Source: an uncultured Bacteroidota bacterium (GTDB lineage: Bacteria; Bacteroidota; Bacteroidia; Bacteroidales; WCHB1-69). From it: DNA of 49,734 nt. Under the pieces are notes generated by a model. The model was not told the origin of the DNA. It made no database searches and was given only the letters and a program-made list of their open reading frames with translations. How positions within the stretch are numbered: position 1 is the first letter of the stretch; every line of letters starts with the position of its first letter. The stretch covers positions 1 to 49,734 of the forward strand of contig CACXUB010000010.1 of NCBI GenBank assembly GCA_902770735.1, written 5' to 3'. Positions 3,786-41,558 of this stretch are shown here, in pieces. Position numbers and translations under genes: made by a program.

Positions 3786-4796
3786 CTATTCCCCGTACCT
3801 CTCCAATCCCTTCCCAATCCTCATCTTTATCTTCTCCCTAAACCATTCCGGTTCAAGCACTTCCATGTTTTCGCCAAAGGACAGGATCAGTTGCTCCAGC
3901 TCGTAGTTCAGATACACTTCGATGGTGATGACGGCGCCGGTGGCATCCTCAGCGACCTTCTTTTGCGTGCCATGGAGCGGCTTGGTGCGGACGTACGGCC
4001 ACGAGACCGGGGAGACCCATAACTTGACGAGCGTGGGCTCGGCGTTTGAATCTTTGGACACCCCGATCATCTCGTCAAAATAGTCGGTGAAATTGATGTA
4101 GGCGGGTTGGAACGGTACATCCGTCTCTTTGATGCCCAGGATACGGTCGAGGGCATAGTTGGTCAACGTCTCATAACCCTCATTCCTGGCAATCAGGAAC
4201 CACCGCTTGTTGTACTGTTTCAGATAATAGGGATAGACCACGTATTCCACCTCTTGGTCCTGCCTGAAACTTTTGTAGGTAATGCACAACGTCCGCTTTT
4301 CGCTGATGGCGTTGAACAACGGCGTGAAGTGGTCCAGCCCTTCCAAATCCATGTTCTCGTCAAAACCGACCACCTCATCCGTGGAAACCTCATCGATTTT
4401 CAACGAAGCGCCCAAGCGGTCGGAAATCTCGCTGATCCAGTCGAACTGCGGCATCCCTTTGAACCGTTTCAGCAAACAGAGTGTCTGGATGAGCTGCGCG
4501 GTCTCCTCGGGCTTCAGCAGCGGCCTGTAGATGGAGAAATCGGGATCGGCATAGTGATAGCGGATATTCCGCCCCTCCCGGAAACTTTCCACATCCGCAT
4601 TCGGGGCGTATATCCGTTGAATCTGTTCTATATCGCCGCGGATGGTATTCATGGCCGACACGGGCGGAAAGTCATGTAGTTCCAATTCCTCATTGCATAA
4701 TTCCATCATCTCCGCCATCGAATACTTGCGATTTTTGTCACTCAGACAGCGGTCAATGACCTTGATGCGGAGATCAGCATTTTTGGAATTCGGCAT
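3786..4796 (-). CDS. WYL-domain transcriptional regulator (wHTH-WYL-WCX)
   Basis: N-terminal wHTH (RIKVIDRCL...TIRGDIEQI), WYL core YPYYLKQYNKRWFL...YALDRI, WCX tail TKPLHGTQ...LEQLILSFGENMEVLEP. Confidence 0.92.
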   Translation of the reverse strand: MPNSKNADLRIKVIDRCLSDKNRKYSMAEMMELCNEELELHDFPPVSAMNTIRGDIEQIQRIYAPNADVESFREGRNIRYHYADPDFSIYRPLLKPEETAQLIQTLCLLKRFKGMPQFDWISEISDRLGASLKIDEVSTDEVVGFDENMDLEGLDHFTPLFNAISEKRTLCITYKSFRQDQEVEYVVYPYYLKQYNKRWFLIARNEGYETLTNYALDRILGIKETDVPFQPAYINFTDYFDEMIGVSKDSNAEPTLVKLWVSPVSWPYVRTKPLHGTQKKVAEDATGAVITIEVYLNYELEQLILSFGENMEVLEPEWFREKIKMRIGKGLERYGE

Positions 4797-15423: not shown

Positions 15424-15506
15424 GCCATGGTGGTGGAATGGTAGACACGAGGGACTTAAAATCCCTTGCCCGCAAGGGCGTGTGGGTTCAAGTCCCACCC
15501 GTGGTA
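15424..15506 (+). tRNA. tRNA-Leu (TAA)
   Basis: GCCATGG/CCGTGGT acceptor stem, D-loop GGAATGGTAGAC, anticodon arm AGGGA-CTTAAAA-TCCCT, long variable arm, T-loop GTTCAAGTC. Confidence 0.96.
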
Positions 15507-15512
15507 CGACAA

Positions 15513-15585
<73 letters not shown>

Positions 15586-15685: not shown

Positions 15686-15732
15686 TGCTACTCGCAGAAA
15701 AATCCCCTATTTTCCATTTTTCCCTATTTTTG
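15686..15732 (+). promoter_or_regulatory. Palindrome box 1 + -7 element (DUF2779 gene)
   Basis: TGCTACTCGCA (15686-15696), N28, TATTTTTG (15725-15732). Confidence 0.85.
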
Positions 15733-17319: not shown

Positions 17320-17366
17320 TGCTACTAGCAAAAAACGCACCCCGATTTCATTTCTTCCTATTTTTG
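17320..17366 (+). promoter_or_regulatory. Palindrome box 2 + -7 element
   Basis: TGCTACTAGCA (17320-17330), N28, TATTTTTG (17359-17366). Confidence 0.85.
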
Positions 17367-17393: not shown

Positions 17394-17573
17394 ATGGAAA
17401 AGAACAATCTCAAAGAAGAGGAGTTGAACACGTATGAATGCGAAGTGTATCTTTCACACTGCGCCTGTATCACCAAGTATGTCAAGGCCAAAACACTTGA
17501 AGCCGCCATCGCCTATTTGGAGAAAAAGTACCCGGAGGCGACCTGCGTTATAGAAGCGGACCACTGGAGGTAG
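17394..17573 (+). CDS. Small hypothetical protein (59 aa)
   Basis: ATG 17394 in an A-rich context 27 bp after the -7 box; MEKNNLKEEELNTYECEVY... Confidence 0.6.
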   Translation: MEKNNLKEEELNTYECEVYLSHCACITKYVKAKTLEAAIAYLEKKYPEATCVIEADHWR

Positions 17574-18041
17574 TGGGAGCTCGCTCACTCAGCTGTGTGC
17601 CCTTGCGGGTAGGAGGTTCCGCTCAACGCTTACGCGTCTTGCGGAATGGTGTAGCGCGCTAGGGAAAGAAAAGGGAAAAGGCGGGCGGCGTTCGGACCAG
17701 ATCCGGCCACGGACTTATCTCCCTTAACCCCGTCCGGCGGCGCGCACCATTCCGTTTGGCCAGACTGAGGGTGCTACATTCGCGAAAGCAGTCCGTTAGG
17801 ACTGCGGGGGTTGGTAGCTGGGTAACGGAGACATTGTTGTTTCCCGCAGGCTGTCCCGGGTCGCGATGTTCGCGGCGCGGGGGAAAGTCCCGGGCGAGGG
17901 AATTGGGTGGTTCGCCGCGAAACGGGGAGAAGGTTCGGACGGGCGTGCGAGAGGGATTGAAGCCTGATGTCGCGTAGGAACCGATGTTTCTAACGTTGCC
18001 GTAAAAATCACTGACGCTTGGAAGCGTCGCCCACTAAGCTT

Positions 18042-18088
18042 TGCTACTAGCAAAATCACAGACGACCCCCATATTAATTGTATTTTTG
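18042..18088 (+). promoter_or_regulatory. Palindrome box 3 + -7 element
   Basis: TGCTACTAGCA (18042-18052), N28, TATTTTTG (18081-18088). Confidence 0.85.
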
Positions 18089-18183: not shown

Positions 18184-18909
18184 ATGACTATTTTGCAAAA
18201 ACCAAATGCGACGGTAGGGCAGATCGTGAAAGACCTGGAACAGATTGTGGAGAAGAAGCTGGGCATCTTCCTGGAGTACAGTTACGACGGCGATGATATG
18301 TACGTGGAAGGCATCAAACTGCGCAAGGACATTGCCATATTGGAAACCACCGGCAAGAAGAAGCGCGCGGTCACGGCGGAAGACCTCCTGGCGATGTTTC
18401 GCTTGCTGGACGTATCACTCGGAGTAGTGATACAATATGATTGGGGGATGTTGAACTTTGAGCCATTCTAAGACGGTTCTATCTTCAAGTACGACGAGGA
18501 AGAGGATTTTTGCCAGTTTACGATGGACAGAGATGTGCGACTCCTCACCACGCAACAGATTGAGGCCGAATTGAAAAAGGTTGATAAGGAAGGATTCCTC
18601 GATTTCAAGGTGGTGCCTCAATTGTGGTACGGTAATAAGCTGACTGTATATCGTGCGAATTGTCTGTGGTATGACTATGGCAAACTCTTCCTGTGCCACG
18701 ATGAAGACAATGAATCGGACAGCATCACGGTAGGCGAGCTTTTGGAAAAATTTCCTGATTGTGCCGAGTTTATGGTACGGGTAAACGGGAAGTTCTATAC
18801 CGTCGAAGTGGATGAAAATGGACGCTTCTTCAGTTTTCCGAAGTTAGGGAATGAGACTCTTTTTGCCATCCACCTTGGCGAGATGGTGTTTGACCCGAAT
18901 GAGATGTAG
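18184..18909 (+). pseudogene. Hypothetical protein split by one in-frame TAA (18469-18471)
   Basis: ORFs 18184-18471 and 18523-18909 are in the same frame and joined by 17 sense codons (DGSIFKYDEEEDFCQFT). Confidence 0.65.
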
Positions 18910-19745: not shown

Positions 19746-19801
19746 GCTAACTGCTAACTGCTAACTGCTAACTACTAACTGCTAACTGCTAACTACTAAC
19801 T
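19746..19801. repeat. Heptamer tandem repeat (CTAACTG/CTAACTA)n
   Basis: About 8 units immediately after the prfH stop. Confidence 0.85.
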
Positions 19802-20424
19802 CACAAATCCCCCTTGAACTTCTTCACCGGATTCCCCCGCTCGAGCGTGTTGTGGTTCATCCAGACGTCGCGCTCGCGCTGGGCTCTCGCGGCTTCGTGG
19901 TCGGCGGCGAGGCGCATCAGCAGCCGCTCTTTCGCCAACTGCTTGTTGCGCATCTGCGATCGCTCGTCGGAGGCTGTCACGCTGAGACCCGTGGGCAGGT
20001 AGGTGGCCCGAACCGCCGTCTCCACCTTGTTGACGTTCTGCCCGCCCGGACCGGAGGCGCGGTGCGTCTCATAGACGATCTGCCGCTCATCGACCTGCTG
20101 CGCCTGCATCGGGGCGATGAAGTGGACCCCCACGAACCAGTTCTTGCGGCGGTGCCACGGACGGAAGGGGTTCTTCTGCGCCACCCACAGCACCGAGCCC
20201 TCCCACGCGGCGGCGAGTGCGGACAACGCCGCCTCGTCGCCCTCCGCCGACAGCGTGGCCGAGAACATACAACCGTTGCTCGGCCCGGGTTCGTAGTCAA
20301 TCAGTTGGCACGAAATGTTTTGGTCTTTGGCCTGATGGATGAGCTTTTCCATCACCAAGACCACCACGCGGCAACACTCCTCGGGGCCGCGACCCGATGT
20401 TATCTGAATATAAGTCTTTTGCAT
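19801..20424 (-). CDS. prfH: Peptide chain release factor H
   Basis: [35 protein letters not shown] (GGQ), [14 protein letters not shown]. Confidence 0.93.
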
Positions 20425-20430
20425 AATCTT

Positions 20431-21828
20431 CTATTCTTGGTTCATTCTTATGATGCGGGGATGGATCCTCCCCACCACTTTGATTAATGTTTCCGAGGCG
20501 GCCAGCACCTCGTCGATGGATTTGTAGGCGTCTGGGGCCTCCTCGGTGGAGCCGCCCAGCAGCGTGACACCCCGCTGCGCCAACTGCCGGTTGAGGGCGT
20601 AGCGACTGAAGCTGTTTCGCGCCTCCTGCCGCGACATCGCCCTTCCCGCCCCGTGACTGGCCGAGCAGATGGCTTCCTCGCAGCCGAGACCGGTCACCAA
20701 CAGTCCGGCGTCGGTCATGTTGGCAGGGATGATGCCCAACTCGCCCGCGTGCGCCGGGGTGGCACCCTTGCGGTGCACGATTACTTCCGAACCGTCGGTC
20801 AGCGTCTCCCGCCATGCGAAGTTGTGGTGGTTGCTCACGTTGGCTAACGGTTGCAGTCGCATTCCCTGTGCCACGTTCCGGTGTATCAGCTCGTGGCAGA
20901 CCGCCGAGTACTCGCCGGCGATCTCCATGCACTGCCAGTACATCTCGCCCTCCTCGCTGTCGAGGTCGAGCCACGCGAACGGTCCGGCCTCGCGGGGCAG
21001 CCGGCACTGCGCTTTGGCGATGGTCGTGAAGTGCTCGGCGATGGCCGCCCCGAGGCCTCGGCTGCCGGAGTGCGACAGGATGGCCGTATAGCTTCCCGCC
21101 GCTAACGTCAACGGGTTGTTGGCATCTAAATTCACCTCGCAGATATCGACGAAGTGGTTGCCGCCGCCGCTGGTGCCCAACTGCCGGATGGCCTTGTCCC
21201 TCAACTTCTTGAGAACCGGGATGGTGCGCCACTCCTCGCGGTCGAAGAGTGGGTGGTACTGCTTGAACGGCAGCACACCCTCCATCCCGAAGGCGGTGTT
21301 CTCCCACAGCGCTTTCTCGATTCGGCCGTGGTGGTCGCGGATGTGGCTGCCGGGCGCGTCGAGGAGGGTGAGCGACATGCGGCAGCCGATGTCGAGCCCC
21401 ACGGCGTAGGGGAGCACGGCGTTGCGGGTGGCCAGCACGCCGCCCACGGGAAGTCCGTAGCCCGCGTGCGCGTCAGGCATCAGTGCGCCCGCCACGGTGA
21501 CGGGCAGCCGCATGGCGGTCTCCATCTGCCGGAATGCCAGCGGGTCGATGAGGTCGCGTCCGAACACAGCGCAGGGGAGGGGATTCTCCCGCAGGTCGTG
21601 GTGTCGCACGGTCGTCTCTTTCGGCGACAGCAGTTCCGCTAACGCCCGCCAGCGCGGGTTTTGGTGTTGTTTATATTCTTCGGGGTGCGCCACGAAGTCT
21701 TGCAGCAGCGACAAGATCTGTTCGTCGGTGAGGTGTTTGCCCTCCTGCTTCACGAACTCCAACATCCGGCTGCGGAGCACATTGTCGGTGACCCCCATTT
21801 TGGTCAGTTCTTTCTTTAAGTTGCCCAT
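20431..21828 (-). CDS. rtcB: RtcB family RNA ligase (RtcB2 type, paired with PrfH)
   Basis: MPDAHAGYGLPVG, DIGCRM, GGGNHF, HSGSRG, HHNFA, HRKGATPA, SHGAGR, EEAPDAYK. Confidence 0.95.
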   Translation of the reverse strand: MGNLKKELTKMGVTDNVLRSRMLEFVKQEGKHLTDEQILSLLQDFVAHPEEYKQHQNPRWRALAELLSPKETTVRHHDLRENPLPCAVFGRDLIDPLAFRQMETAMRLPVTVAGALMPDAHAGYGLPVGGVLATRNAVLPYAVGLDIGCRMSLTLLDAPGSHIRDHHGRIEKALWENTAFGMEGVLPFKQYHPLFDREEWRTIPVLKKLRDKAIRQLGTSGGGNHFVDICEVNLDANNPLTLAAGSYTAILSHSGSRGLGAAIAEHFTTIAKAQCRLPREAGPFAWLDLDSEEGEMYWQCMEIAGEYSAVCHELIHRNVAQGMRLQPLANVSNHHNFAWRETLTDGSEVIVHRKGATPAHAGELGIIPANMTDAGLLVTGLGCEEAICSASHGAGRAMSRQEARNSFSRYALNRQLAQRGVTLLGGSTEEAPDAYKSIDEVLAASETLIKVVGRIHPRIIRMNQE

Positions 21829-22306: not shown

Positions 22307-23521
22307 ATGAGAGTGAAGCCGTATGTCCCTGATCCCGAGAACGATGTGTTTTTGAATAGCTACGACAACGAGATTCCGTTGGCGTGCAATGTCATCTATT
22401 ATGTGGAAAGCGCGGAAAACGAGCCGTTGAATGCAGCCATGCGCGATTTGGCGAAGCAAGACATCACGCTGTTGGATGACGCAAAAATCCAGCCATATCC
22501 GTTTGGACTTCAGTATGTTGCGCAGTCCGATCTGGATGAAGAAACCCTTCGCGCAGCCTTGATGCCCGAATATGGCGAAACGCTGACGGAGGAGACCGTC
22601 GGTAACTTCCGTCGCTGCTTGTCGGACGGTCAGGGCGGCACGCTGGTGGCCCGCTGTCTGCCGATATTCTCCAGCGGCGACTTTTTCGAGGACGACAACA
22701 CTGTCTGCACCTTCCCGGGGTTCCGTCTCACCGCCCCTGAGAAGGCCGCAGGGAAAGTTGCGTGGTTCGCCCGTGAGGCCGCCGAACGGAACTTCTATCG
22801 TCTGACCGGTGAATCCTACCAAGACTATATCAATCCTCCGGCGCGTGCTCGGGAATCCCGGTCGGGATACGGGGGATTTGGAATGGGCTTTATCACCCGG
22901 GAAAAGTCCAAGCAGGAAATTACCGAAGATATGCAACGTCGAGCCGAGGCATTGTCGGACTGGATTGTCAAGAACATCCAAGATGACAACGTGGCTATCT
23001 CTGTTTTGGACCTGGTGCAGAAACAGTTGCGCAACAAGGGAAAATTGAAGGTGCCCTGCAAGATTAAAGTCAAGGACAAGAGCATCTACCGGATGCTTCC
23101 CAATAACGAGCTGAAAAAGTTGTCAATCGGAAGGGGCGCCATCCCCAGGATGCTGTACGTTTTCTACCTGATTCAGATCAAGCGTGCGGCAAAGGATGCC
23201 CGCCAGCCAAGGAATATCGCGCAAGTGAATCTCGTGGATTATAAAGACGATTTGTTGCACATTTACAAGAATATCGGTTCCAACTGGGATGCCGACATGC
23301 ACAACATCGAGTCCGTATGGGACAAAACCAATGGCACTTTTTCGAGTGCCCTGTGGTCCATCCGCAACTGTTTCGAAGACATTTTTGATGTAAACAGTCT
23401 GCTGCCCAAGTGTTACACCATAGAGATTGTGGACGAAGACAAGATGGGCAGGAGTCTGTACGGCATCCAGCTCGACCCTGACGACATTGAGTTGGGGTGG
23501 CCGTATGACGGGATGGTGTAA
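22307..23521 (+). CDS. Hypothetical protein with C-terminal putative winged-HTH domain
   Basis: 404 aa; C-terminus (GRGAIPRMLYVFYL...DYKDDLLHIY...SIRNCF...CYTIEI...YGIQLDPDD) is paralogous to 27819-28625; -7 box TAATTTTG at 22271. Confidence 0.7.
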   Translation: MRVKPYVPDPENDVFLNSYDNEIPLACNVIYYVESAENEPLNAAMRDLAKQDITLLDDAKIQPYPFGLQYVAQSDLDEETLRAALMPEYGETLTEETVGNFRRCLSDGQGGTLVARCLPIFSSGDFFEDDNTVCTFPGFRLTAPEKAAGKVAWFAREAAERNFYRLTGESYQDYINPPARARESRSGYGGFGMGFITREKSKQEITEDMQRRAEALSDWIVKNIQDDNVAISVLDLVQKQLRNKGKLKVPCKIKVKDKSIYRMLPNNELKKLSIGRGAIPRMLYVFYLIQIKRAAKDARQPRNIAQVNLVDYKDDLLHIYKNIGSNWDADMHNIESVWDKTNGTFSSALWSIRNCFEDIFDVNSLLPKCYTIEIVDEDKMGRSLYGIQLDPDDIELGWPYDGMV

Positions 23522-23534
23522 GGCGGCCTTTCCC

Positions 23535-23581
23535 TGCTACTAGCAGAAATCAACCCCCTGTCCGTTGATTTCCGACTTTTG
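23535..23581 (+). promoter_or_regulatory. Palindrome box 4 + -7 element (AAA ATPase)
   Basis: TGCTACTAGCA (23535-23545), N28, GACTTTTG (23574-23581). Confidence 0.8.
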
Positions 23582-23608: not shown

Positions 23609-25348
23609 ATGAGAGATAACAAGAATTTCAACGCCCTCAAGACCTTGACAGAGGTCGCCAAACTTATGGAAAATTCCACCGACAGGATGATCCGACTTTA
23701 CGATCCCGAGTTCACGGCTTCCGGGAATGCCGACGAACGCTCTAAACGGAAACCGGACAACCAGCTCATCAGCGCGATGGAACCGCAACTGCGCGAACAG
23801 GTGGACCAGCTCGGCCGCTTCCTGAAGACCACCCCGCTGGAAACCCTGCTCTTCGTGGCGGTCTTCGCCATCCAGCTGATCAACAACAGCAGCGTCGACA
23901 CCCGCGACATCAGCCGCTACCTCGACATCAACGGGCTGGACTTCCTGCCGCTGAAGCCCGTGCTGCATTCGCTGCTGAAAAAACGCCTGATCCGCGTGGT
24001 GAACCGCCGTCGCAGCACCAACGACTATATCGTGGCCGATGTCGTGGAGCACTCGCTCCTCCTAAACAAACCGGTGAAACGGATGAAAGCGCAGGAGATG
24101 GACCAGTTCCAGTTCTGCAACCTCGTCTCCGGACTCATCGAATGCCGAAGCAACGAGGACTTTGACACGCGTGAGCTTTTCATCCAGGTGGAAAGGGAGG
24201 AGGAAGCCAACTCTCACATCAAATTAGTGAAAGAGTTGCGGAAACTTTCGCTCGACATTGAGGACAGAACCCTCTTTTATGAAATCTGTGACGATTTCGT
24301 CCGCGACCGCCGGCGCAACACGGGGGTGGAATGCACTCTGAACGACATCTACGACAATCTGCGCCATCGTTTCGACATTGCCAAGAACATCATGAGCCAA
24401 AACCATCCGCTCATGCAGTCAGAGCTGGCGGAACTGCTTCCCGCCAAATTCCTCGCCGAAGCGGAGATTACGTTGACCGAAAAGGGCAAACGGCTGCTGT
24501 TGGACGAGGACTACGACCTGTTCTGCGGCAAGGGTGGTACCGACAAACGGCTGACCGCACCCGACAAGATTCCCGTCCGCGAACTATTTTTCAGCGAGGA
24601 GCTGTCGGCAGACCTCGACTTCGTGAAGGAGAGTCTGCAGGAGGAGAAATTCGTGGAGCTGCAGAAGCGGTTGGAGGAAAATTCGCTGCCCAAGGGTGTG
24701 GCCATGCTCTTCCACGGGCTGCCCGGCACAGGCAAGACCGCCGCGGTCGATATGATCGCCAAGGCCACCGGCCGCAGCGTCTATCACGTCGATATCGCCG
24801 CCTCCAAGACCTGCTGGTTCGGCGAGAGCGAGAAGCTCTTCAAGAGAATCTTCACCGACTACCGCCGCATGTGCGAGACCGAGGAACGCAAGCCCATCCT
24901 GCTGTTCAACGAGGCCGACGCGCTCTTCAGCAAGCGCCGCGACGTCGATTCCGGCAGCTGCGCCCAGACCGAGAACGCCCTGCAGAACATCCTGTTGGAG
25001 GAGATGGAGACGCTGGACGGCATCCTCATCGCCACCACCAACCTGTGCGACAACTTCGACAGTGCCTTCGAGCGCCGCTTCCTCTTCAAGGTGAAGTTCG
25101 GGCAGCCCAACACCGATGCTAAGAAGTCCATTTGGAAGAGCAAACTCCCGTGGCTCACGGAAGAACAGTGCGGCCTGTTGGCGACGAAGTACGACCTCTC
25201 GGGCGGCGAAATTGACAACATCGTGCGCAAGAGCATGATGGAGGAGGTGCTGAGCGGCAACCGTCCCGATGTGGCGATGTTAGAGGCCTGGTGCCGCGGT
25301 GAGAAGCTGACGCGGAAGGGCGGGAAAGCGATTGGGTTTGCGTGCTGA
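23609..25348 (+). CDS. AAA+ ATPase (SpoVK/Ycf46-like) with large N-terminal region
   Basis: Walker A GLPGTGKT, WFGESEK, Walker B LLFNEAD, ATTN...FDSAFERRF, LSGGEIDN, C-terminal IGF; likely start ATG 23609. Confidence 0.88.
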   Translation: MRDNKNFNALKTLTEVAKLMENSTDRMIRLYDPEFTASGNADERSKRKPDNQLISAMEPQLREQVDQLGRFLKTTPLETLLFVAVFAIQLINNSSVDTRDISRYLDINGLDFLPLKPVLHSLLKKRLIRVVNRRRSTNDYIVADVVEHSLLLNKPVKRMKAQEMDQFQFCNLVSGLIECRSNEDFDTRELFIQVEREEEANSHIKLVKELRKLSLDIEDRTLFYEICDDFVRDRRRNTGVECTLNDIYDNLRHRFDIAKNIMSQNHPLMQSELAELLPAKFLAEAEITLTEKGKRLLLDEDYDLFCGKGGTDKRLTAPDKIPVRELFFSEELSADLDFVKESLQEEKFVELQKRLEENSLPKGVAMLFHGLPGTGKTAAVDMIAKATGRSVYHVDIAASKTCWFGESEKLFKRIFTDYRRMCETEERKPILLFNEADALFSKRRDVDSGSCAQTENALQNILLEEMETLDGILIATTNLCDNFDSAFERRFLFKVKFGQPNTDAKKSIWKSKLPWLTEEQCGLLATKYDLSGGEIDNIVRKSMMEEVLSGNRPDVAMLEAWCRGEKLTRKGGKAIGFAC

Positions 25349-25424: not shown

Positions 25425-25471
25425 CGCTACTCGCAAAATAACCCGTATTTCAAAAAAACGAACTATTTTTG
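25425..25471 (+). promoter_or_regulatory. Palindrome box 5 + -7 element (YqiA-like esterase)
   Basis: CGCTACTCGCA (25425-25435), N28, TATTTTTG (25464-25471). Confidence 0.8.
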
Positions 25472-27158: not shown

Positions 27159-27599
27159 ATGAATCATTATACAGGAAACATCACCCCGGGGAAGGACATC
27201 ATCTTTGTGTTCGGGAGCAACCCGGAAGGGAAACATGGCGCGGGCTCGGCCAAGGTCGCCCTCCAGAAGTTCGGCGCCAAGTACGGCAAGGGCGACGGCC
27301 TGCACGGACAATCGTACGCCTTGATAACCACCGAGATGCGCAAAGGGTGGCCGCGCATCACCTTGGAGCAGATCACCGACAACGTGCGTCGCCTGTACGA
27401 GGTGGCGAGGAAGATGCCGGACAAGCGGTTCATGGTGGCCTACCGCAATCAGCCCGACCAACGGACCCTGTGCGGCTACACGGGCGCGCAGATGATGAAA
27501 TGCTTCCTTTCCGCCGGCGAAATCCCCGACAACATCTGGTTCAGCGAAGAGTGGTACAAGGCCATGAATTGCGAGACAAATAACCCCAAAACCTGCTAA
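27159..27599 (+). CDS. A1S_2505-family (phage non-structural-like) protein
   Basis: IFVFGSNPEGKHGAGSA..A..KFGAKYGKGDGLHGQSYAL.T; likely start ATG 27159. Confidence 0.75.
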   Translation: MNHYTGNITPGKDIIFVFGSNPEGKHGAGSAKVALQKFGAKYGKGDGLHGQSYALITTEMRKGWPRITLEQITDNVRRLYEVARKMPDKRFMVAYRNQPDQRTLCGYTGAQMMKCFLSAGEIPDNIWFSEEWYKAMNCETNNPKTC

Positions 27600-27640
27600 T
27601 AGCAGAAAACGTGACTGCCTGAATATTCATCGTATTTTTG
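27594..27640 (+). promoter_or_regulatory. Palindrome box 6 + -7 element
   Basis: TGCTAATAGCA (27594-27604), N28, TATTTTTG (27633-27640). Confidence 0.85.
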
Positions 27641-27818: not shown

Positions 27819-28625
27819 ATGGAATCAGATGCACAGAAAAAATTAGATGTTAAGAAGTCGGAGGAGATGGAAAGTGCCGGCAACCTCCAAGAATCGCATG
27901 ACGACGAAGTGTCCAAGCCGTGGAACGGCGTGTTTTACACCGAAGGCGATGATGAACCCATTATTGTTGATTCAAAGATCAGAACTATGGGGGATTTGGA
28001 ACGTTTGGTGGATGAGTCAATGGTTAAAAATCAAATGGTGGAAGAGTTGTTGGAATGGGTCTCCATACGCACAAAGGGGGATGTTGACCTTGCGGCCACG
28101 TTGATGAAAAAGGGGTTGCGGAGGCTGAACAACAAAAACAAACAGAAGGATCCGTGTCGTATTATCGTGAAAGAAAATGGAATCTTTGTCGAACTTCCCG
28201 ACCAAAAACTCAAAAAGGTGACTTTCGGACGGGGAAACTTGTCGAAAACGCTGTATGTCTTTTTCCTTCGCCAAATTGTGCGAGCCACGAAGGACAACAC
28301 GATTCCGGGCTGTCTCTCGCAATTTGAGATGGGGGATTACAAGGAGGAACTGATGTTCATTTACCAAAACGTCAGCGGCAAGCATGGTGACATCCAGGAG
28401 GTGGAATCGTGGTTGGAGAAGGGCACGGTGTCCAACAACTTCGCGAACGCCACCGCCTCCGTCCGGAAGTATTTCGACAAGCTTTTCGACAACTATGTCA
28501 TCAAATACAAATGGGAGAAATGCTACAGTATTGAAATCAAGGGGACGGACCGTCGCGGCAACCCGCGCTACGGCATAAAACTCACCCCGGACGATTTCGT
28601 GCTGAAGTGGCCGTTTGAGGTGTGA
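27819..28625 (+). CDS. Hypothetical protein, putative winged-HTH domain (paralog of the 22307-23521 C-terminus)
   Basis: GRGNLSKTLYVFFL...DYKEELMFIY...SVRKYF...CYSIEI...YGIKLTPDD..LKWPF. Confidence 0.7.
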   Translation: MESDAQKKLDVKKSEEMESAGNLQESHDDEVSKPWNGVFYTEGDDEPIIVDSKIRTMGDLERLVDESMVKNQMVEELLEWVSIRTKGDVDLAATLMKKGLRRLNNKNKQKDPCRIIVKENGIFVELPDQKLKKVTFGRGNLSKTLYVFFLRQIVRATKDNTIPGCLSQFEMGDYKEELMFIYQNVSGKHGDIQEVESWLEKGTVSNNFANATASVRKYFDKLFDNYVIKYKWEKCYSIEIKGTDRRGNPRYGIKLTPDDFVLKWPFEV

Positions 28626-33272: not shown

Positions 33273-33977
33273 TCATACCCCTACCAGTCTCCCCAACAGC
33301 TGCGCCATCAGCTCGGAAACGCTCCGTTTTTTGTCATGGCTCGTTTTCAAGTACAGCGTGCCCTTCTCCATATATACCCGCTTGTTCACCTCCAGCATCA
33401 ACGACTGGTACCGGAATGCGCACTCCGGTGCCTCCGAATTGCTGTACGGGTAGTTGATGCCGACCGAGTAGCCGTTCTCCTCGAAAAGGTTTACGACAAA
33501 CTCCACCGTCTCCTTGTCTGGCTTCGACCAATCCTCGTTGAAGCCGATGCAGATGTCCACATTGCCTTGCTCCTCGGGGAAGGAGTGGCAGTCGAGAAGG
33601 AGGGCGTTCTCACAGAGCGTGCTCTTCAGTCTGTGCTGATGGCCGCGCCATAGGTTGTAAAGCTGTTTCTCGCATTGTTTCGGGATGTGACGGTGATAGT
33701 CTCCGAAACGCCGGTAGAGGATGCCTTGCCCCTCCTTCTCCAACGGATCGTTCCACAGCCGCTCGGCATCTACTACAAAACGCGAATAAGGGAAACGTAC
33801 GGGACGGATCCGCTCGTTGCGGAAACCATGAAACAGGAAGTCGGTGTGCCAGTCGGTGAGACGGAACACCACCTCGTTGATGAAGCGGGCGTCGATATCC
33901 CAGAAACTGAGTTCGTGGTCGTACAGCCCTTCAATGGAGGCGTGCGGCTCGTGGAGCACGATGATTGGATATGCCAT
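33273..33977 (-). CDS. N-formylglutamate amidohydrolase family protein
   Basis: LHEPHAS, LTDWHTD.LF, YSRFVVDAER, DCHSF, DICIG, NYPYS, LMLEVNK. Confidence 0.85.
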   Translation of the reverse strand: MAYPIIVLHEPHASIEGLYDHELSFWDIDARFINEVVFRLTDWHTDFLFHGFRNERIRPVRFPYSRFVVDAERLWNDPLEKEGQGILYRRFGDYHRHIPKQCEKQLYNLWRGHQHRLKSTLCENALLLDCHSFPEEQGNVDICIGFNEDWSKPDKETVEFVVNLFEENGYSVGINYPYSNSEAPECAFRYQSLMLEVNKRVYMEKGTLYLKTSHDKKRSVSELMAQLLGRLVGV

Positions 33978-33983
33978 AGTTCT

Positions 33984-35084
33984 TTATTTTTGATGTGACT
34001 GTTCTGCCGCCGTTCCTTTTTTTACAAATTCCACCACCTCGTCAGATGTGATGAACTCCGTGTCGTCCGGCCGGTTGAAGAGTTCAGGAAGCAGCTCTGA
34101 CAATTCCTTCTTCGCCATGCATTCAAGTTCCTGTTGTAGATTGAAAATCCTTTTTTTCAACGGAGTGAGCTTGTGTTGATAGAACATCCTGGTGATTTCA
34201 CCGTGGCGGAATTGCTGCTTGAGCTGCTGCTTCTGCAGATTCAGCGATTCCAGTACTTCCTTGCCCTCTTCCTGCTTTCGGCAGTAGTCGGCATACCAGT
34301 TCGTGAGTGCCTCGCGTTTGCATTCGAGGTGGGCGTTCAACAGGGTGACCCGCATCTTCTCCATCGCCTTGGCATCGGCCTCGCGGGTGTCCAGTATCTC
34401 CTGCCGCAATACCTGATTCTCGCGTTGAAGAAGATACAACTTTCTTTCTGTCAGACTGTCGCCTTTGTCGTTGGCCTCTAACAGCTTCACCACCTCTTCT
34501 AACGAGTAAGCTTCGTAACGCACCTTGGCCTCATCGTATCGCGTGTTGATATTCGTAAATGGACCCCAAATAGCTCTGAACGGGTTGGGCAGGTTCTCCG
34601 ACCGGCATTCTCCGTTAGCATTGACGATGCCGCAGCAGTTCATTCCCGACAGCGGGCTCCCCGCGATGTAATATACGAGCCAGGTGTCGTTGTGGAGGCG
34701 GCTGATGATGGCGGGAATGCACGTCATCCACCATTCGACATAGACACCCAATGTAGGGCGTCGGAAGCCACTGGTTCCGATGTAAGCGAGGCCGCTTTGT
34801 ACGGGAACGGGGGCAAGGAACATGCGACTGTCGTTCAGGATTTTCTCGCGGTGGTCGAGGAAAAAGAAGGCGCGGTCGGTGAAGAATTTCACGGCCTGTT
34901 TGCGCTGCTCCTCCAGTTCCGGCGGGATGGGCTTCACGACGGGTTTCCGCCTGCCGACAGAGAGATACTGTCCCGTGGTGTCCAGCTTCATCCGGTTGTC
35001 GATGGGCTGTGAGAGTTCCACTTTCGGATAGCACAGTAGTTCGCGACCACTGAGCAAAGTGATTTGATGGATTTGCTTCATCAT
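33984..35084 (-). CDS. Hypothetical protein with C-terminal coiled coil
   Basis: Likely start ATG 35084 (MMKQIHQ), downstream of the -7 box at 35254-35247; SGLAY.G, TLGVY.EWW, GSPLSG.N.C motifs; upstream of and co-oriented with the amidohydrolase. Confidence 0.72.
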   Translation of the reverse strand: MMKQIHQITLLSGRELLCYPKVELSQPIDNRMKLDTTGQYLSVGRRKPVVKPIPPELEEQRKQAVKFFTDRAFFFLDHREKILNDSRMFLAPVPVQSGLAYIGTSGFRRPTLGVYVEWWMTCIPAIISRLHNDTWLVYYIAGSPLSGMNCCGIVNANGECRSENLPNPFRAIWGPFTNINTRYDEAKVRYEAYSLEEVVKLLEANDKGDSLTERKLYLLQRENQVLRQEILDTREADAKAMEKMRVTLLNAHLECKREALTNWYADYCRKQEEGKEVLESLNLQKQQLKQQFRHGEITRMFYQHKLTPLKKRIFNLQQELECMAKKELSELLPELFNRPDDTEFITSDEVVEFVKKGTAAEQSHQK

Positions 35085-35246
35085 TCGGTTCCGGTTGCCT
35101 GTACACCGGAAGGTTCTGTGCCGAAGATGAGAAACGCGGTGCCCTTTATCGCTAAAGAACACCGCGTATGGCGGGTTGTTATTTAGCGCGTTTTTTAGAG
35201 AGGTTGGCAATTTGACGTAAATCCGTTCCTCTTTCTCATCCGGCGG

Positions 35247-35329
35247 CAAATATACGAAATTTTTTTTGAAATATCGGTTGTCTGCTACTCGCAACAATTT
35301 TTTTTGCATGGGGAAAATGATTATTTTTG
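35247..35329. promoter_or_regulatory. Palindrome box 7 shared by divergent promoters
   Basis: Minus-strand TATATTTG (35254-35247), N28, TGCTACTCGCA (35283-35293), N28, plus-strand TATTTTTG (35322-35329). Confidence 0.88.
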
Positions 35330-35348: not shown

Positions 35349-38126
35349 ATGCTTAAACTTATTTTCAGCCCCTATTATGACGGGAACTGCTACGCCGGAA
35401 ATCCCGACAAAAACCAATGTGTGCTCGGCACGAAGTATGTCGGACCGCTCGGACTGCTCGACGAATTGGAGCTTCGCGCAGGGATGAGCCGCGGGGAGAC
35501 TTCCCCCATGCAGCGCGCCATCGCCTACTGTAACGCTATCCAGAATGTATTGGACAGCAAGCCTTCTTCAAAACCATTTTACCAACAGTCGTTCGAGAAC
35601 GACCCGCTTGGCGTGGCACAGCAGCTGCTCCGCTGGCGCGATGCTCTGTGTATGGCGGGATGGAGCAAGAACACCAAATTGCCCGACTCGCTTTCCGAAG
35701 ATGGGAAAAAGCGGTTGGAAGATTTGCAGGCAGTTGAAGAACATTTTCATAGCATCGGTGTCGGCGAAAGGTGGCATCAACTGCTGAATGCCGATTTGGA
35801 TGCCATGCTTCCTAAAGATTTGGAAATCGAGGTAGATATGAAGATGGAGCTGCTGCCGCCCGTCATCCGTAAGGTGCTGGAGAAAACCAAAAAAGCCAAG
35901 GAGTCCGAGTCCGTCGCAGATCTTGGAGACAAGACCCTCAGCGACTTTGCCGGGAAGTTCACCCTTTACCGGTTTCCCGAACAGAACGACGCCTACCAGT
36001 GGGCGGCGTTGCAAACGGAATTCACCCCCGACGTTTACGTCAACGAGGACAACTTCACTTTCAACCAGGTGCTGAAATCGGTGGGCAAGCCGTTGGTGGA
36101 TGCCTCTGTTGAGGGTGGTGCCGCCGAACTTTCGCAATTGCTGAAACTGGGTGTTGCCCTCTTCCGTGCTCCCGTCAATTACGACAAACTGATGAGCTAC
36201 CTTAGCATTTTCCGACATCCGATCGATTGGGAAACGCGCAGCTCACTATGTTACCACCTGAAACAAAAGGGCGGTTTGGGCGATATGGTAAATAAAGATG
36301 GCTCAATCACCAAAATTGACGAAACAGCAAAGAACTACCCCGAATTTTGGGGCATGTGGAACCATGGCATTAATGGGCAAGTTGCTGTGAATGAAGTGAA
36401 AAAGTTTTGCAAAAAACTGCTTAAATGGATAGAAACGGCAACTGTCAAAGCCAAGGCAGAGAAGGTTCTGTCGCCTTTGTCTGGCACGCAGGCGTGTGCC
36501 CAGCTGTCGCAGTTGCAGGAAAGAACCGAACTTCTGCTCATTGTTTTGGATGGGAGGAATGGCAATATCAGCAACGACGAACTGGACAAATTAGTCACCT
36601 CCATTTGTCAAGGCGGATTGGTGAGTACCGACTTTGCACGCCTCAAATCCCGCGATATGCTGAAAGACCTCAAAGGTCTGGCCGTGAGTGGGAAGACCGT
36701 GATGTGGCTGGACTGTGTGCGCAAACCGCGTTCGCGATATGAGTACGCCTTCCTGAATCCCGCCGACATCAAAAAACTACAAAATACAGGGTTGGAAATT
36801 CCGCCCGCCACGTTGGAGATGCTGGCCTCCGATTTCGCCGATCTACTGGCCGTAAGCCGGGCTGAAAAGATCATCGCCCTGATGCCCCAGCGTAAAGACG
36901 GAGAACGCACTGAGGAGAACCTGCTCATTACCGAACTTCGTGAAACTTCTTCCGGTACAATTACTATTGCCTCTCCGGTTTTGCCCTCAGGTATTGCCAT
37001 AACGACTACCCCCGCCGATACTCAGAAAGTGGAACATCAGGTTGACAAAGCTTTGTTTGCCAATATTGACAAACCAAAGCCGAAAGAAGAACAGACTATA
37101 GCAAGTGCTCCTTCCAAATTTATGCCCAGACCTGTAGGTTACCGACGCGACTACGAAAGTTTTTCGAGCTTGAGCGAACTTATCAACCAGCCGTTCGACT
37201 ATGTGCTGGATTACATTTACAATATGAAAGAAGAGGACGAGGGCAATCTTTCAACGATGGAAGGCAATGTGGCACATGCTGTTATAGAACAGATAGTGGC
37301 TGAGTGCAAAGACGCAAGCGGCAATGTGGATACTACAAAATTCCTGAGTATTTGCAAAAACAGCACAAACCTTGAAGATCGGACCGATAAGGCAATCCTT
37401 GAAGTAGGTGCCCAACTGCTACAGCCAGAAAACGAGATGGAATGCACCGTCTTCAAGCGGATTTTCATCGAAAAGAGCGTCCCCGTATTGGTGAAAATTA
37501 TTGAAGACAACACTTTGGAGGTGGTAGGCAGTGAAGTGGAATATACCACTATGCTGAAAGATTCCAGCGGAACAGATGCATTCAATTTCAACGCAAAAAT
37601 CGATTTCCTCCTGAAGAGGAAAAACAAAGAGAGCGGAGAATATGAGTATTTGATTTTCGATTTCAAATGGACTGGGAACCCCAGTAAAAGAGAAAAAGAA
37701 TTGAACGAGTGTAAAGAATTGCAATTGGCTTTGTATCAAAAGATTGCAGAGGTGAATGGCAAAACTCCCGTTGTGATGCGCGGCTACTATCTACTGAAAC
37801 AGGCACAGTTGCTCACCATTAATAACGTGCTGAAAACTGCTGACGATATTGTGGAACAAAAATCCACATACGATATCTTCGAGCAGGCCGTGGCCTCTTA
37901 TCGCGAGCGCATCAAAAACCTTAAAGAAGGATATATCGAGGAAGGGGAAGAAAAGAAGGGGACTGAATTTGAAAAAACAGTGTTTGTTGGAAATTATATG
38001 AGCAATCCGGATAATTACTACCTAAATAACAAGTTGAAGAAAAACAGCAGAGGACCTGGAATGACGGCTGCAGCGAAAGAATCAACCTACGGCAAGAATA
38101 CTGTATTAAAAGGCAAAATCAAGTAA
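35349..38126 (+). CDS. AddB/RexB-like protein with C-terminal PD-(D/E)XK nuclease
   Basis: GP.GLL..LELRAG, LL.WRD.L..AGW; ESFSSL..L...PFDY, GNVAH, AKIDFL...IFDFKW, LQLALY; start ATG 35349. Confidence 0.8.
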   Translation: MLKLIFSPYYDGNCYAGNPDKNQCVLGTKYVGPLGLLDELELRAGMSRGETSPMQRAIAYCNAIQNVLDSKPSSKPFYQQSFENDPLGVAQQLLRWRDALCMAGWSKNTKLPDSLSEDGKKRLEDLQAVEEHFHSIGVGERWHQLLNADLDAMLPKDLEIEVDMKMELLPPVIRKVLEKTKKAKESESVADLGDKTLSDFAGKFTLYRFPEQNDAYQWAALQTEFTPDVYVNEDNFTFNQVLKSVGKPLVDASVEGGAAELSQLLKLGVALFRAPVNYDKLMSYLSIFRHPIDWETRSSLCYHLKQKGGLGDMVNKDGSITKIDETAKNYPEFWGMWNHGINGQVAVNEVKKFCKKLLKWIETATVKAKAEKVLSPLSGTQACAQLSQLQERTELLLIVLDGRNGNISNDELDKLVTSICQGGLVSTDFARLKSRDMLKDLKGLAVSGKTVMWLDCVRKPRSRYEYAFLNPADIKKLQNTGLEIPPATLEMLASDFADLLAVSRAEKIIALMPQRKDGERTEENLLITELRETSSGTITIASPVLPSGIAITTTPADTQKVEHQVDKALFANIDKPKPKEEQTIASAPSKFMPRPVGYRRDYESFSSLSELINQPFDYVLDYIYNMKEEDEGNLSTMEGNVAHAVIEQIVAECKDASGNVDTTKFLSICKNSTNLEDRTDKAILEVGAQLLQPENEMECTVFKRIFIEKSVPVLVKIIEDNTLEVVGSEVEYTTMLKDSSGTDAFNFNAKIDFLLKRKNKESGEYEYLIFDFKWTGNPSKREKELNECKELQLALYQKIAEVNGKTPVVMRGYYLLKQAQLLTINNVLKTADDIVEQKSTYDIFEQAVASYRERIKNLKEGYIEEGEEKKGTEFEKTVFVGNYMSNPDNYYLNNKLKKNSRGPGMTAAAKESTYGKNTVLKGKIK

Positions 38127-38129
38127 ATT

Positions 38130-41100
38130 ATGAGAAACGTACATTATATCAATGCCGGCGCAGGTGCCGGAAAGACTTACAGGTTGGTGACCATCCTGAA
38201 AAATATTCTGACCGACAAGAATAATCCTTGCGCTCCATCGGAAATTATACTTACCACTTATACCAAGGCGGCTGCCAAAGAATTTCGGGAAAAGACTTTC
38301 AAAAGGTTACTTGAAGTCCCTGCCGCCCTCGATGTGGCCAAAATCCTCGACACCGCCACCATCGGCACCGTACACTCCGTGGCACAGCAGTATATACAAC
38401 GCTATTGGTCGCTGCTCGGCTATTCCGGACAGTTCAATGTGATGTCGGATGTGGACAAAAAACGCTACATCAACCAATCGCTCAAAAACGTAGTCAAACA
38501 TGCCGATTTGACTTTCTTTTACGAGTTCACCAGGGATTTTAACATAACGAAATATGATGTCGCAAAAGGTGTACCCCTTGTGAATTATGACTTTTGGAAA
38601 GATTATGTGCTGGAAATTGTTTCCAAAATGCGGGCATATAACATCAAGCCGACCCAATTAAAGAATTTCGCACAGCAGTCGTGCGATGTGGTGGACAGAC
38701 TGTTTATTCATGATTTCAAGCTGGCAACATTCCAAAGTTTGGCAAAAGATTACGTAGATTTTCTGGATAGATGTAATGGAAGATCTGCTGCAGCAGCCCA
38801 AAGGAAGAAAAAACAATATGACGTTCTTTGTGCTGCATCACCATTCTCCAAAGAAATCCTTAAAGAATTTGTCGCCTCAAAATCTGATTTCTACAACTAT
38901 TCAAGCACAATAGATAAAGAGCCAAATGCCGAAAAAAGTGGCGATAATTCAAAAAAATACATACAGAAATGTATTGTGCTTAATTCTGCCAATGGCATAA
39001 AAGTGAAAGACTGCATCAAACGCATCTTCACCATTGCAGAGACATGGTCGCAAAAATTCGAACAGTACAAACGTGACAACAACCTGCTGGATTTCGATGA
39101 TTTGGAGGCCAAGTTCCTCGAACTCCTTGATAAAAAAGAAGTTCAAGACGATATCCGAAGCAGTATCAAGTACCTGTTTGTGGATGAGTTTCAGGATTCG
39201 AACCCTATACAGCTTGAGATTTTCAAAAAACTTTCCGATTTGGTACAGGTAAAAAGCTACTGGGTGGGCGACCGCAAGCAGGCTATATACGGTTTCCGTG
39301 GCAGCGATTCCTCACTCACGACCAATCTGTTGAAGTCGTTTCCTGACCCTGTGCCCGGCCAAATATCTGGCTTTGTCCCCAATGCCGATGGCTGCACTTC
39401 GCAACTGATCGACACCTCCTACCGTTCCATCGAAAGCCTGGTGGAATTGGCGAATAAGGTGTTCGAAAAATCGTTTGCCTTTGGCGACCCGTCTGAAATC
39501 ATTGACAATGTGCCGTTGCAGGTAATACGGTTAGATGGGAATATCCAAACACCCATCCAGCATTGGCATTGCAACTCTGTGGACGCTTTGGCCGACCGCG
39601 TGGCGGAAATCCTGAACGGAAATGTAACTACCATACCCGGTGTATATGACGAAGGGGGGGCTGAAAAAACGGATAAAGACAAGAATTGGCGCACACAAAT
39701 TGTCCCTGCCGACATTGCCGTACTTTCGCGCACTAAAGCCGATTGTGCCAAAATTGAGGAAGCCCTGCGCAAAAAAGGCATCCCCGTTTCCTCGCCCGAG
39801 ACCTCCATTTTGGACAAAGCGGAGGTGCGACTCGTTTTTGCCCTGCTGAAATATGTGGCAGGCATCAAACGTCGGTATGCAAAGACGGAATTGGCCAAGT
39901 TACTGGAAGACAAAGGAATTGGCGATGTTTTGAAGGAGATTGCCGCCAATCGCTACGACTACAATCCTTTCTTCGACGAAGAGGACAGCAACGGGAATGA
40001 AGAAGATGCCACAACCACTTCAACAGCAGGAACGCCGGCAGGCAAATCGGCAAAAAAAGATCCTGATGCCTTTTTTGCAGACCTGAACGACAAACTACAA
40101 GGTTTGCGCGGGCTCAACATCAGCGCCATTGTCAAGGGCGTGATTGCCGTGATGGATGTGCGCAATGTAGTTGCAAAATGGGGCAACGCCGAAATCCGTC
40201 AGGACAACCTTGACACGTTGATTGAGCAGGCCATCGCCTACGAGCAGTCCACGGCAAATTCGGCCGAAAGCGCCACCGTGGCAGGCTTTATCAACTATAT
40301 GGAAGAGGTGGAAATACAGTCGGAGCTGGACCAAAGTGCCGAGGGAGTGAAAGTGGCTACCTACCACAAATCCAAAGGTTTGCAGTGGAAAATCGTTATC
40401 CTCAACTCGTTGGATGATAATGAATTGGAGCTCGCTGATTTTGTCAAGAAAAACTGGTTCGGCCTGAATCTGAAAGGTGACTATGGCAATGCTGAACTGC
40501 AGCTGATCCCCAATTGCGGAGATGTGACGGATGCTGTGGCCGAAGCAGTTTTGGCATTATCTAAACAAACGGCGGGCAGCGACGACAACAGCTATTACAA
40601 TATGGTACACGGCAAGGTGGAAGGCGAAATCAAGCGGCTGCTGTATGTGGGTGTCACCCGTGCCCGTGACTACCTTGTAACTACTTCTTTTCCAGATGCT
40701 TGGGGTAGGGCGCAGTCAATGGATTGGATTAAGAACATAATTGGCAGTCCCGCTCCTGCTGCATTGGACACACCTAATAGCCAAACCGACAAAACGCCTG
40801 TTGACTTTTGGGGAGTGCCGGCACATCCCGCCTATTATGAGCAACTTGCCGATTCGGGCAATACCTTCTCTGGTTCGGCGACCACAGATGTGAAACTGGA
40901 TTCAGTAGCGATTAGTACAGAAACGACTCCCAAAACCATCTCTCCCAGCAGCTCGCTGGAGAAATACAACGCTAAGGCTGATCTTCTTGGTCGCTTTTCA
41001 TCTCATTACATTGAACACGGAACTATCAAAGAGGGAGAATCCGCCGCTTTCGGCACCTGCATCCACAACTACTTCGCAGCACACCGATGGGATGGTAAGG

Positions 41101-41558
41101 ACAAGATTGGTGACAATGTAGCATACAACGAAGCCTTCGCTGCTACAACGATAGCGAACCACAATATGACCGAGGAGTTACCCTATCCGGAACTTCTGAC
41201 CCAAGCGGCAGACACCTTGTTCTTCTATCTGGAAAACACGTTCGGCCCAGGTGAATTACTCCGCGAGACTCCGTTCTCTTACCGCCGTAACAACGAGCAG
41301 TTGGTGCAGGGCGAAATCGACTTGATTTGGAAAACTGACAAAGAGTGCATCTTGTTGGATTACAAGAATTTCCCCGCACCAGAAAAATGGGGAAAGGAAA
41401 TTGTCATGGACGACAGGTCCGACAATAAGTTTTATGTGAAAAAGTACTTCCCGCAGTTGGGTGACTACCGCGCCGCCCTCACTGCATACGGCATGAATGT
41501 GACGCACGTGTTCGTGTTCTATGCCGTGCTGGGGTGCTTGGTGGAGGTGAAGTTTTAA
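38130..41558 (+). CDS. AddA-like UvrD/SF1 helicase with C-terminal RecB-type nuclease
   Basis: AGAGAGKT, TTYTKAAA, GTVHS, VDEFQDS, VGDRKQAIYGFRG, SYRS, TYHKSKGLQW, RLLYVGVTRAR; FGTCIH, GEIDL...LDYK, QL..Y. Confidence 0.9.
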   Translation: MRNVHYINAGAGAGKTYRLVTILKNILTDKNNPCAPSEIILTTYTKAAAKEFREKTFKRLLEVPAALDVAKILDTATIGTVHSVAQQYIQRYWSLLGYSGQFNVMSDVDKKRYINQSLKNVVKHADLTFFYEFTRDFNITKYDVAKGVPLVNYDFWKDYVLEIVSKMRAYNIKPTQLKNFAQQSCDVVDRLFIHDFKLATFQSLAKDYVDFLDRCNGRSAAAAQRKKKQYDVLCAASPFSKEILKEFVASKSDFYNYSSTIDKEPNAEKSGDNSKKYIQKCIVLNSANGIKVKDCIKRIFTIAETWSQKFEQYKRDNNLLDFDDLEAKFLELLDKKEVQDDIRSSIKYLFVDEFQDSNPIQLEIFKKLSDLVQVKSYWVGDRKQAIYGFRGSDSSLTTNLLKSFPDPVPGQISGFVPNADGCTSQLIDTSYRSIESLVELANKVFEKSFAFGDPSEIIDNVPLQVIRLDGNIQTPIQHWHCNSVDALADRVAEILNGNVTTIPGVYDEGGAEKTDKDKNWRTQIVPADIAVLSRTKADCAKIEEALRKKGIPVSSPETSILDKAEVRLVFALLKYVAGIKRRYAKTELAKLLEDKGIGDVLKEIAANRYDYNPFFDEEDSNGNEEDATTTSTAGTPAGKSAKKDPDAFFADLNDKLQGLRGLNISAIVKGVIAVMDVRNVVAKWGNAEIRQDNLDTLIEQAIAYEQSTANSAESATVAGFINYMEEVEIQSELDQSAEGVKVATYHKSKGLQWKIVILNSLDDNELELADFVKKNWFGLNLKGDYGNAELQLIPNCGDVTDAVAEAVLALSKQTAGSDDNSYYNMVHGKVEGEIKRLLYVGVTRARDYLVTTSFPDAWGRAQSMDWIKNIIGSPAPAALDTPNSQTDKTPVDFWGVPAHPAYYEQLADSGNTFSGSATTDVKLDSVAISTETTPKTISPSSSLEKYNAKADLLGRFSSHYIEHGTIKEGESAAFGTCIHNYFAAHRWDGKDKIGDNVAYNEAFAATTIANHNMTEELPYPELLTQAADTLFFYLENTFGPGELLRETPFSYRRNNEQLVQGEIDLIWKTDKECILLDYKNFPAPEKWGKEIVMDDRSDNKFYVKKYFPQLGDYRAALTAYGMNVTHVFVFYAVLGCLVEVKF

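Follow-up and report, generated by a model that had tools for sequence, protein, structure and literature searches.

A near-palindromic box between divergent promoters in a variable island of an uncultured Bacteroidota bacterium: a likely activator site

A single bound site that activates two divergent promoters is an arrangement already known from E. coli, where one bound CRP site can lie between promoters that face away from each other. PMC3105977 gives 11 such cases, and El-Robh and Busby (2002) is cited both there and in PMC5499769. In Moraxellaceae, the WYL activator DdaA controls a regulon through the motif CGWCA-N5-TGWCG, which lies about 50 bp upstream of start sites and is taken in that work to mark an activator position (PMC12392091). 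The C-boxes of restriction-modification controllers are given as GACT-N3-AGTC (PMC2175313). Two further systems bear on the present locus: TAnnTTTG, described as the -7 consensus of the primary sigma factor in Bacteroides and Flavobacterium (PMC7641319), and the SAM-II long-loop family RF01726, listed for Bacteroidetes (PMC2864571).

The locus that we compare with these systems lies in a contig of an uncultured Bacteroidota bacterium; by the window we mean the whole stretch of 49,734 nucleotides that was analysed. Positions 35247-35329 span 83 nt and read CAAATATA-N28-TGCTACTCGCA-N28-TATTTTTG, that is, a reverse -7 element, a box and a forward -7 element. CAAATATA is the reverse complement of TATATTTG, itself a TAnnTTTG element, and such an element is present on both sides of the box. 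The first-pass annotation had described an operator centred between two divergent promoters with 28 bp on each side. The 83-nt site matches this geometry exactly, both -7 elements look real, and the box, as a near-palindrome, has the form claimed for a dimeric binder. The flanking genes also agree with what had been named: PD-(D/E)XK and UvrD-helicase proteins to the right, a Pfam-less protein and a member of the N-formylglutamate amidohydrolase (FGase) family to the left. The parts are as follows.

33273..33977, minus strand: FGase family protein (PF05013, 83.5 bits)
33984..35084, minus strand: 366-aa protein without a family, predicted to have a conserved alpha/beta N-terminal domain and a long coiled coil
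35247..35254, minus strand: leftward -7 element TATATTTG, preceded by the A-tract typical of the genus and present in 12 of 12 homologous haplotypes
35283..35293, no strand: palindromic box TGCTACTCGCA, one mismatch from TGCTA-N-TAGCA, a predicted activator site
35322..35329, plus strand: rightward -7 element TATTTTTG, 28 nt from the box in the window
35349..38126, plus strand: AddB-like protein with a PD-(D/E)XK nuclease domain (PF12705)
38130..41558, plus strand: AddA-like UvrD helicase (PF00580, PF13361; TIGR02785 at 149.8 bits, cut-off 707.65)

The right-hand pair is AddAB-like only. AddA scores below the NCBIfam equivalog cut-off for canonical AddAB, and the AddB models gave no match. The 366-aa protein on the left has no family in Pfam, NCBIfam, PHROGs or PADLOC; in fold searches its coiled coil alone was matched, and Atlas matches stayed below 0.8. 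A divergent partner at precisely 67 nt, as seen here, is uncommon, though not extreme. A back-to-back partner within 150 nt accompanies 289 of 884 promoter-like -7 elements in the genome, and four of these pairs, the window site included, are separated by exactly 67 nt.

The box itself is real and, at this distance to a -7 element, recurs as a regulon motif. Its consensus is TGCT-ANT-MGCA, and the island in the window holds seven copies, starting at 15686, 17320, 18042, 23535, 25425, 27594 and 35283, each 28 nt ahead of a -7 element or a variant of it. Besides the copy described above, a motif scan gives:

15686..15732, plus strand: box, 28 nt and -7 element, ahead of a DUF2779 protein
17320..17366, plus strand: box, 28 nt and -7 element, ahead of a short ORF
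18042..18088, plus strand: box, 28 nt and -7 element, ahead of ORFs without assigned function
23535..23581, plus strand: box, 28 nt and variant -7 element GACTTTTG, ahead of an AAA ATPase
25425..25471, plus strand: box, 28 nt and -7 element, ahead of a YqiA-like esterase operon
27594..27640, plus strand: box, 28 nt and -7 element, 5' of the gene for a 268-aa winged-helix protein

One more copy lies outside the window, ahead of a dnaB-like gene on contig C5. In the whole genome, 26 sites are within one mismatch of TGCTA-N-TAGCA. Eight TAnnTTTG elements stand within 60 nt of these sites, seven of them at exactly 28 nt, while distances from three-mismatch sites, a control within the same genome, are spread flat; hence the box is not a product of chance. 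A weight-matrix scan of the genome added only two sites, one spaced by 27 nt at a gene of island type and a doubtful one spaced by 29 nt; core repair genes were absent among its box targets. The module of box, 28 nt and -7 element occurs in 19 of 55 genomes of the genus, the reversed control pattern in 0 of 55. An order-wide draw found the module in 8 of 400 other genomes and the control pattern in 3. Among the fetched genomes G142, G446 and G293, an island-like context was seen only in the genus of G142 and G446. Island-like loci of one other family thus named carry the module as well (three sites in G142, one in G446).

In the fetched loci, the genes at or downstream of boxes encode DUF2779 proteins, AAA ATPases, esterases, Sir2, PARG, McrBC, NT5C nucleotidases, AddAB-like pairs and winged-helix proteins. 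RtcB/PrfH, an EcoRI-type methylase, GmrSD-HNH and Fic are found in the same island without a box of their own; the PrfH and RtcB-family pair (19801-21828, minus strand) is box-free and divergent from the gene for a 404-aa winged-helix protein. Two tRNA genes at 15424-15585 lie immediately 5' of the first box promoter and may mark an island entry point. At 17400-18040, non-coding DNA rich in G+C, about 450 nt long and with no Rfam match at gathering scores, comes after a short ORF. The gene at 18184-18909 (plus strand) seems broken, since its ORFs of 95 and 128 aa match the two halves of a single protein of 243-244 aa in relatives. A second, unrelated back-to-back arrangement, with the box 28 nt from one side and 23 nt from the other, occurs in another genome (G068, locus L026 near 10046).

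Searching for the exact 28/28 pattern over GTDB contigs, from which this genome and its near relatives may be missing, gave two matches, one in Anabaena that overlaps a gene start and one in Phocaeicola. Their neighbours are unrelated, and we take both as chance. The same applies to viral contigs, where at least 120 loci were returned and each of the 80 listed has one match. Literature searches, literal motifs included, found no paper on the box; judging by titles and the beginnings of abstracts, the literal-motif matches resembled unrelated primers or sequences.

What kind of site is the box? Among 95 distinct pairs of box and -7 element 20-36 nt apart, 77 are spaced by 28 nt and 11 by 27 nt. 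One-way box promoters (n=69, mostly from the genus) are stricter still, with 65 at 28 nt and 3 at 27 nt. In the leftward family 28 nt is seen in 2 of 9 cases (3 of 10 if the truncated locus L069 is counted); the Fisher p of 4e-6 overstates this difference because the haplotypes share one origin. In Bacteroidota promoters a -33 TTG or TTTG usually stands about 19-21 nt upstream. A -33-like TTG 17-22 nt before the -7 element is present in 5 of 77 box promoters versus 183 of 891 generic sites, and this last figure also makes TTG a weak criterion in the genus. Generic -7 elements of the genome are preceded by an A-tract, and box promoters mostly have none. Scored on the 12 nt before the -7 element, with a matrix trained on the same generic set that serves for comparison, the 69 one-way box promoters have their median at the 13th percentile of the 891 generic sites and the leftward family stands at the 70th. 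In the window, the left promoter scores 7.3 and the right promoter 2.3, which is mid-range, not weak.

From the downstream logo we infer a start site about 5 nt past the -7 element, which would place the box at about -51 to -41, with its centre at about -46, for each promoter. The scarcity of a -33-like TTG and the missing A-tract fit an activator site near -46. Hence the box is likely an activator site; a role as the operator of a repressor is less probable. Homologues of the dnaB-like promoter carry TGCTAATAGCA in five haplotypes and TGCGAGTAGCA in three, all at 28 nt. It had been proposed that the box should work in either orientation, with this site as internal control; the proposal agrees with these promoters, which are the better control. 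Contigs assembled from RNA runs had small word shares (0.05-0.17), records of up to 45 kb suggest DNA, and strand, start and level were not readable from them.

The leftward transcript would begin with a structured leader:

35173..35237, minus strand: aptamer of SAM-II long-loop-like type, placed first in the leftward transcript (RF01726, 25.2 bits, E 0.0085)
35124..35167, minus strand: predicted terminator hairpin (35167-35134) with a U-rich tail, from folding prediction

In nine homologous loci, RF01726 scores 25.6-26.7 bits in four and gives no match at E<=1 in the other five, and the window leader, too, lies below the gathering score of 44. The core motifs GAUUU, AUUGC and GCUAAA are present in the leader; two paralogous copies read ACUUGC. 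A scan of the genome for these core motifs returned only the leader, the metK leader and one repeat artefact. With 58 bits, the metK leader matches the SAM-II long-loop model fully, and GAUUU, AUUGC and GCUAAA are common to both leaders. Identity within the leader is 95-100% in 12 homologous loci, versus 57-86% for the spacer in the non-identical ones, and the folding z score is -4.6. The 5' arm of the hairpin can pair alternatively with the 3' end of the aptamer, forming a predicted antiterminator (-39.7 versus -33.4 kcal/mol). This layout is that of a SAM-off terminator switch, and we infer SAM-dependent termination from the modelled folds. A generic sigma-70 scan, which is ill-suited to this phylum, omits the leader hairpin from its terminators. 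The leader and its predicted terminator (35237-35084, minus strand) head island genes unrelated to methionine metabolism, and the leader recurs before a 107-aa ORF and before a 490-aa paralogue. Five paralogous copies (L297, L298, L299, L300 and L301) combine the left promoter with the leader ahead of other genes, with no box seen upstream. To judge from these copies and from its strong context, the left promoter likely runs largely alone.

Is the symmetry kept in homologous loci? We drew on 31 loci that encode relatives of the left protein. Where the upstream -7 element was in view, they collapsed into 12 haplotypes; the remaining loci were cut short, more distant paralogues or fragments. A left spacing of 27 nt is the most frequent, with five haplotypes; three have 28 nt, and 26 nt and 25 nt are seen once each. 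In the other two haplotypes the box is lost or decayed. These changes are mostly slippage in a T run. The right spacing is 28 nt in six haplotypes and 27 nt in two, which makes up all eight complete haplotypes with a right promoter; one more is cut by a contig end. The exact 28/28 arrangement is found in 2 of 12 haplotypes, so the exact 83-bp geometry, whose conservation had been suggested as a check, is for the most part not conserved. The near-symmetry is suggestive, although it has a single origin.

The coupling of the AddAB-like and FGase operons that had been read from the shared site may exist, but it is not what the data favour most. Relatives have one of several right-hand genes: an AddB-like gene from either of two subfamilies, an NT5C-type nucleotidase or a winged-helix gene. 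In 8 of 31 loci, taken with flanks of 1.5-3 kb or in some cases less, the left gene is followed by FGase. As the right gene is swapped, FGase follows in a minority of these loci and box-free copies of the left promoter exist, the coupling is one local arrangement and not a conserved link.

On balance we favour, with somewhat more confidence than doubt, the reading that the box is an activator box for the rightward cassette and exerts at most partial control leftward. This reading follows from the fixed 28 nt in one-way promoters, their weak cores, the variable left spacing, the box-free left promoters and the swapped right-hand genes. A dimeric activator would bind the box and turn on the rightward AddAB-like cassette along with the other box promoters of the island. 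The leftward promoter would be largely self-sufficient and gated by the predicted SAM-II-like riboswitch, and the exact 28 nt between left promoter and box is probably incidental. Some observations speak against this reading. Despite a spacer identity of 57-86% among non-identical homologues, 10 of 12 haplotypes keep a good box 25-28 nt from the left -7 element, and only 14 of the 289 divergent -7 pairs fall in the corresponding range of 64-68 nt.

The same observations lead to the strongest rival, true two-way co-activation, in which a single dimer on the box brings RNA polymerase to each of the two promoters, as CRP can, and the left one, being strong, tolerates 25-28 nt. The most common left spacing, 27 nt, is also seen in 3 of the 69 one-way promoters, and the box is orientation-independent at the dnaB-like promoter. 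In one lineage (L049/L071/L072), a perfect box stands at 26 nt and the right promoter is missing, and control of divergent promoters from a single site has the precedents described in PMC3105977 and PMC5499769. If co-activation were true, the left operon would need the island signal plus low SAM. Nevertheless, the left spacing drifts over 4 nt through the poly-T run while the right spacing stays at 27-28. In two other haplotypes that lack the right promoter but have the left promoter and leader, the box is absent (L052) or decayed and at 31 nt (L063), and the left promoter occurs box-free elsewhere. We therefore regard two-way co-activation as possible but clearly less probable than mainly rightward activation.

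One could also argue that control is opposite on the two sides: the bound protein might activate rightward and hinder polymerase at the strong left promoter, or it might repress both. A left promoter that stands alone in context could only be lowered, and Cmr is described as a dual regulator acting from one site (PMC5499769). It is improbable all the same, for the box lies upstream of the -33 region, AusR operators that are taken to block polymerase overlap the -7 element (PMC7641319), and fixed spacing together with weak cores favours activation.

Similarity between cassettes frequently begins or ends at the box (box sites in L025-L044 and L244-L263). A comparison of the 75 sites spaced by 28 nt shows unrelated left flanks in 41 of the 75 pairs whose spacers are at least 75% alike, and unrelated spacers in 12 of the 49 pairs whose left flanks are alike. 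Such breaks in homology fit a shuffling of promoter-headed cassettes. They could also suggest that the box serves chiefly as a crossover point at which cassettes are exchanged, each taking its promoter along. We give this idea little credence. No recombinase family was found among the scanned window proteins, and for the core site of an integrase a box of 11 bp, with 1 nt at its centre, is short. A fixed 28 nt to the -7 element would be needless, and ordinary recombination with selection on box-plus-promoter repeats yields the same pattern. Finally, that the left TAnnTTTG is a chance match and the right promoter alone exists is very hard to believe: the element does occur 1906 times in the genome, but here it is kept in 12 of 12 haplotypes, changes only at its two free positions and stands a fixed 15 nt from the first stem of a structured leader conserved at 95-100%.

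If the box is an activator site, which protein binds it? The leading candidates, still tentative, belong to an island-encoded family of OmpR-like winged-helix proteins, with two members in the window:

22307..23521, plus strand: 404-aa candidate binder with a C-terminal homologue of the modelled OmpR/PhoB-like winged helix; the box is absent from its own promoter
27819..28625, plus strand: 268-aa protein with an OmpR/PhoB-like winged helix predicted from a model and without a recognised receiver domain; candidate binder

The winged-helix model has a pLDDT of 83. Its best structural match is BaeR (Z 8.0, rmsd 2.9 over 98 residues), and the top structural rows are mostly OmpR-family or other winged helices. 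Foldseek with this model gave nothing at E<=0.001, and sequence search found no solved relative of the family. The candidates have no Pfam or NCBIfam match to a receiver domain, and the modelled N-terminal part is helical. Close members occur in 12 of 19 genomes with the motif versus 0 of 36 others, an association confounded by island linkage, and in G142 they lie beside boxes. Against this candidate, the left gene shows a similar co-occurrence through linkage (8 of 19 versus 1 of 36), and G033 and G446 have boxes and no winged-helix member. OmpR-type domains, moreover, usually read direct repeats. The Pfam-less family (22307-23521 and 27819-28625 in the window; L031, L038, L088-L098 and L244) joins a shared OmpR-like winged helix to N-terminal domains that vary; these islands contain four or more subtypes, and distant members occur in other parts of the genus.

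Something other than the named candidates is a lesser prospect that we still take seriously; slightly below it we place an unlinked WYL paralogue of the contig C41 type, and lower again a small XRE/C-protein-like dimer. Co-occurrence was queried for WYL proteins of the window, C198 and C41 types, with those on C56 and C1 left out. The C41 type tracks the motif, being present in 16 of 19 genomes versus 8 of 36, and is often linked to the dnaB-like site. Close orthologues are missing from G142 and G446, where the best match reaches 41-42%, and a box of its own, which shares the half-sites but has a 5-nt centre, lies 11 nt before the -7 element. This WYL-associated box, TGCNA-N5-TNGCA, is seen near 13477 on C41 (L266) and near 74682 on C5 (L287), and the dnaB-like gene has the N1 island-box and N5 WYL-box promoters in tandem.

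The other WYL candidates were rejected. The WYL gene in the window (3786-4796) has orthologues in 7 of 19 motif genomes versus 8 of the other 36. TGCTACT, which is present in its promoter, belongs to the -7 context and no more; a comparison of 11 orthologues showed no conserved upstream half. The C198 type shows no association with the motif (2 of 19 versus 2 of 36). Elsewhere in this genome, the -7 elements of a WYL gene and of an RtcB gene stand back to back with a different palindrome between them (L269, C1 near 24620-24670), and a further WYL gene is apparently split over two frames (L267, C56 12415-13297). Matches to HTH_3 number 17 in the genome and 0 on contig C10.

Few activator sites have been mapped in uncultured Bacteroidota. 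The rule TGCT-ANT-MGCA, 28 nt, TAnnTTTG marks the cassettes of a variable repair and defence island, and the analysis also yields a short list of candidate binders from a Pfam-less family and a SAM-II-like leader in an unexpected setting. A bolder view makes the box a two-way hub of a new island regulon, with an orphan OmpR-like winged-helix protein co-activating swappable repair and defence cassettes and a SAM-II-gated leftward arm that fires when SAM falls. Phage SAM lyases exist as a counter-defence that lowers SAM. Under the hub, SAM might fall in just this way when a phage SAM lyase attacks methylation-based defences, and the riboswitch would be a sensor of counter-defence. We hold the hub to be improbable.

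How, then, does the locus compare with the known systems? As with the CRP sites, the locus places one palindrome between two promoters that face apart, with an activator-like distance to either one (28/28 in the window). It differs from them in motif and host sigma factor; its symmetry is not conserved, co-activation is a proposal and the binder is a set of candidates. Hence the symmetric site is mainly a convenient test piece, since the arrangement is of a known kind and is not conserved. The leader shares with the SAM-II long-loop family as presented in PMC2864571 the core GAUUU, AUUGC, AACC and GCUAAA in order and its place at the 5' end of the transcript. Unlike that family, it scores 25.2 bits against a gathering score of 44, heads island genes without assigned function instead of metK, and has a long predicted terminator after the aptamer.

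The C-boxes, as they are described, are matched in the 11-bp palindrome with two 4-nt half-sites and a 3-nt centre (TGCT-ANT-AGCA), in activation, predicted for the island box, from upstream of the -35 region and in the defence context. The letters differ, C-box operators are paired while the island box is single, there is no HTH_3 gene on this contig, and the box has many targets where a C-box has one operon. DdaA is a WYL protein, whereas the window's own WYL protein does not track the box. Its motif has a 5-nt centre and the island box a 1-nt centre; here the 28-nt signal belongs to the N1-spaced form, and the N5 form, at 11 nt, is a motif of its own. The DdaA regulon as described includes core genes such as recA, whereas our genome-wide scan gave island-type targets and one doubtful site. 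What the two have in common is a palindrome about 50 bp upstream of start sites, ahead of repair and defence genes.
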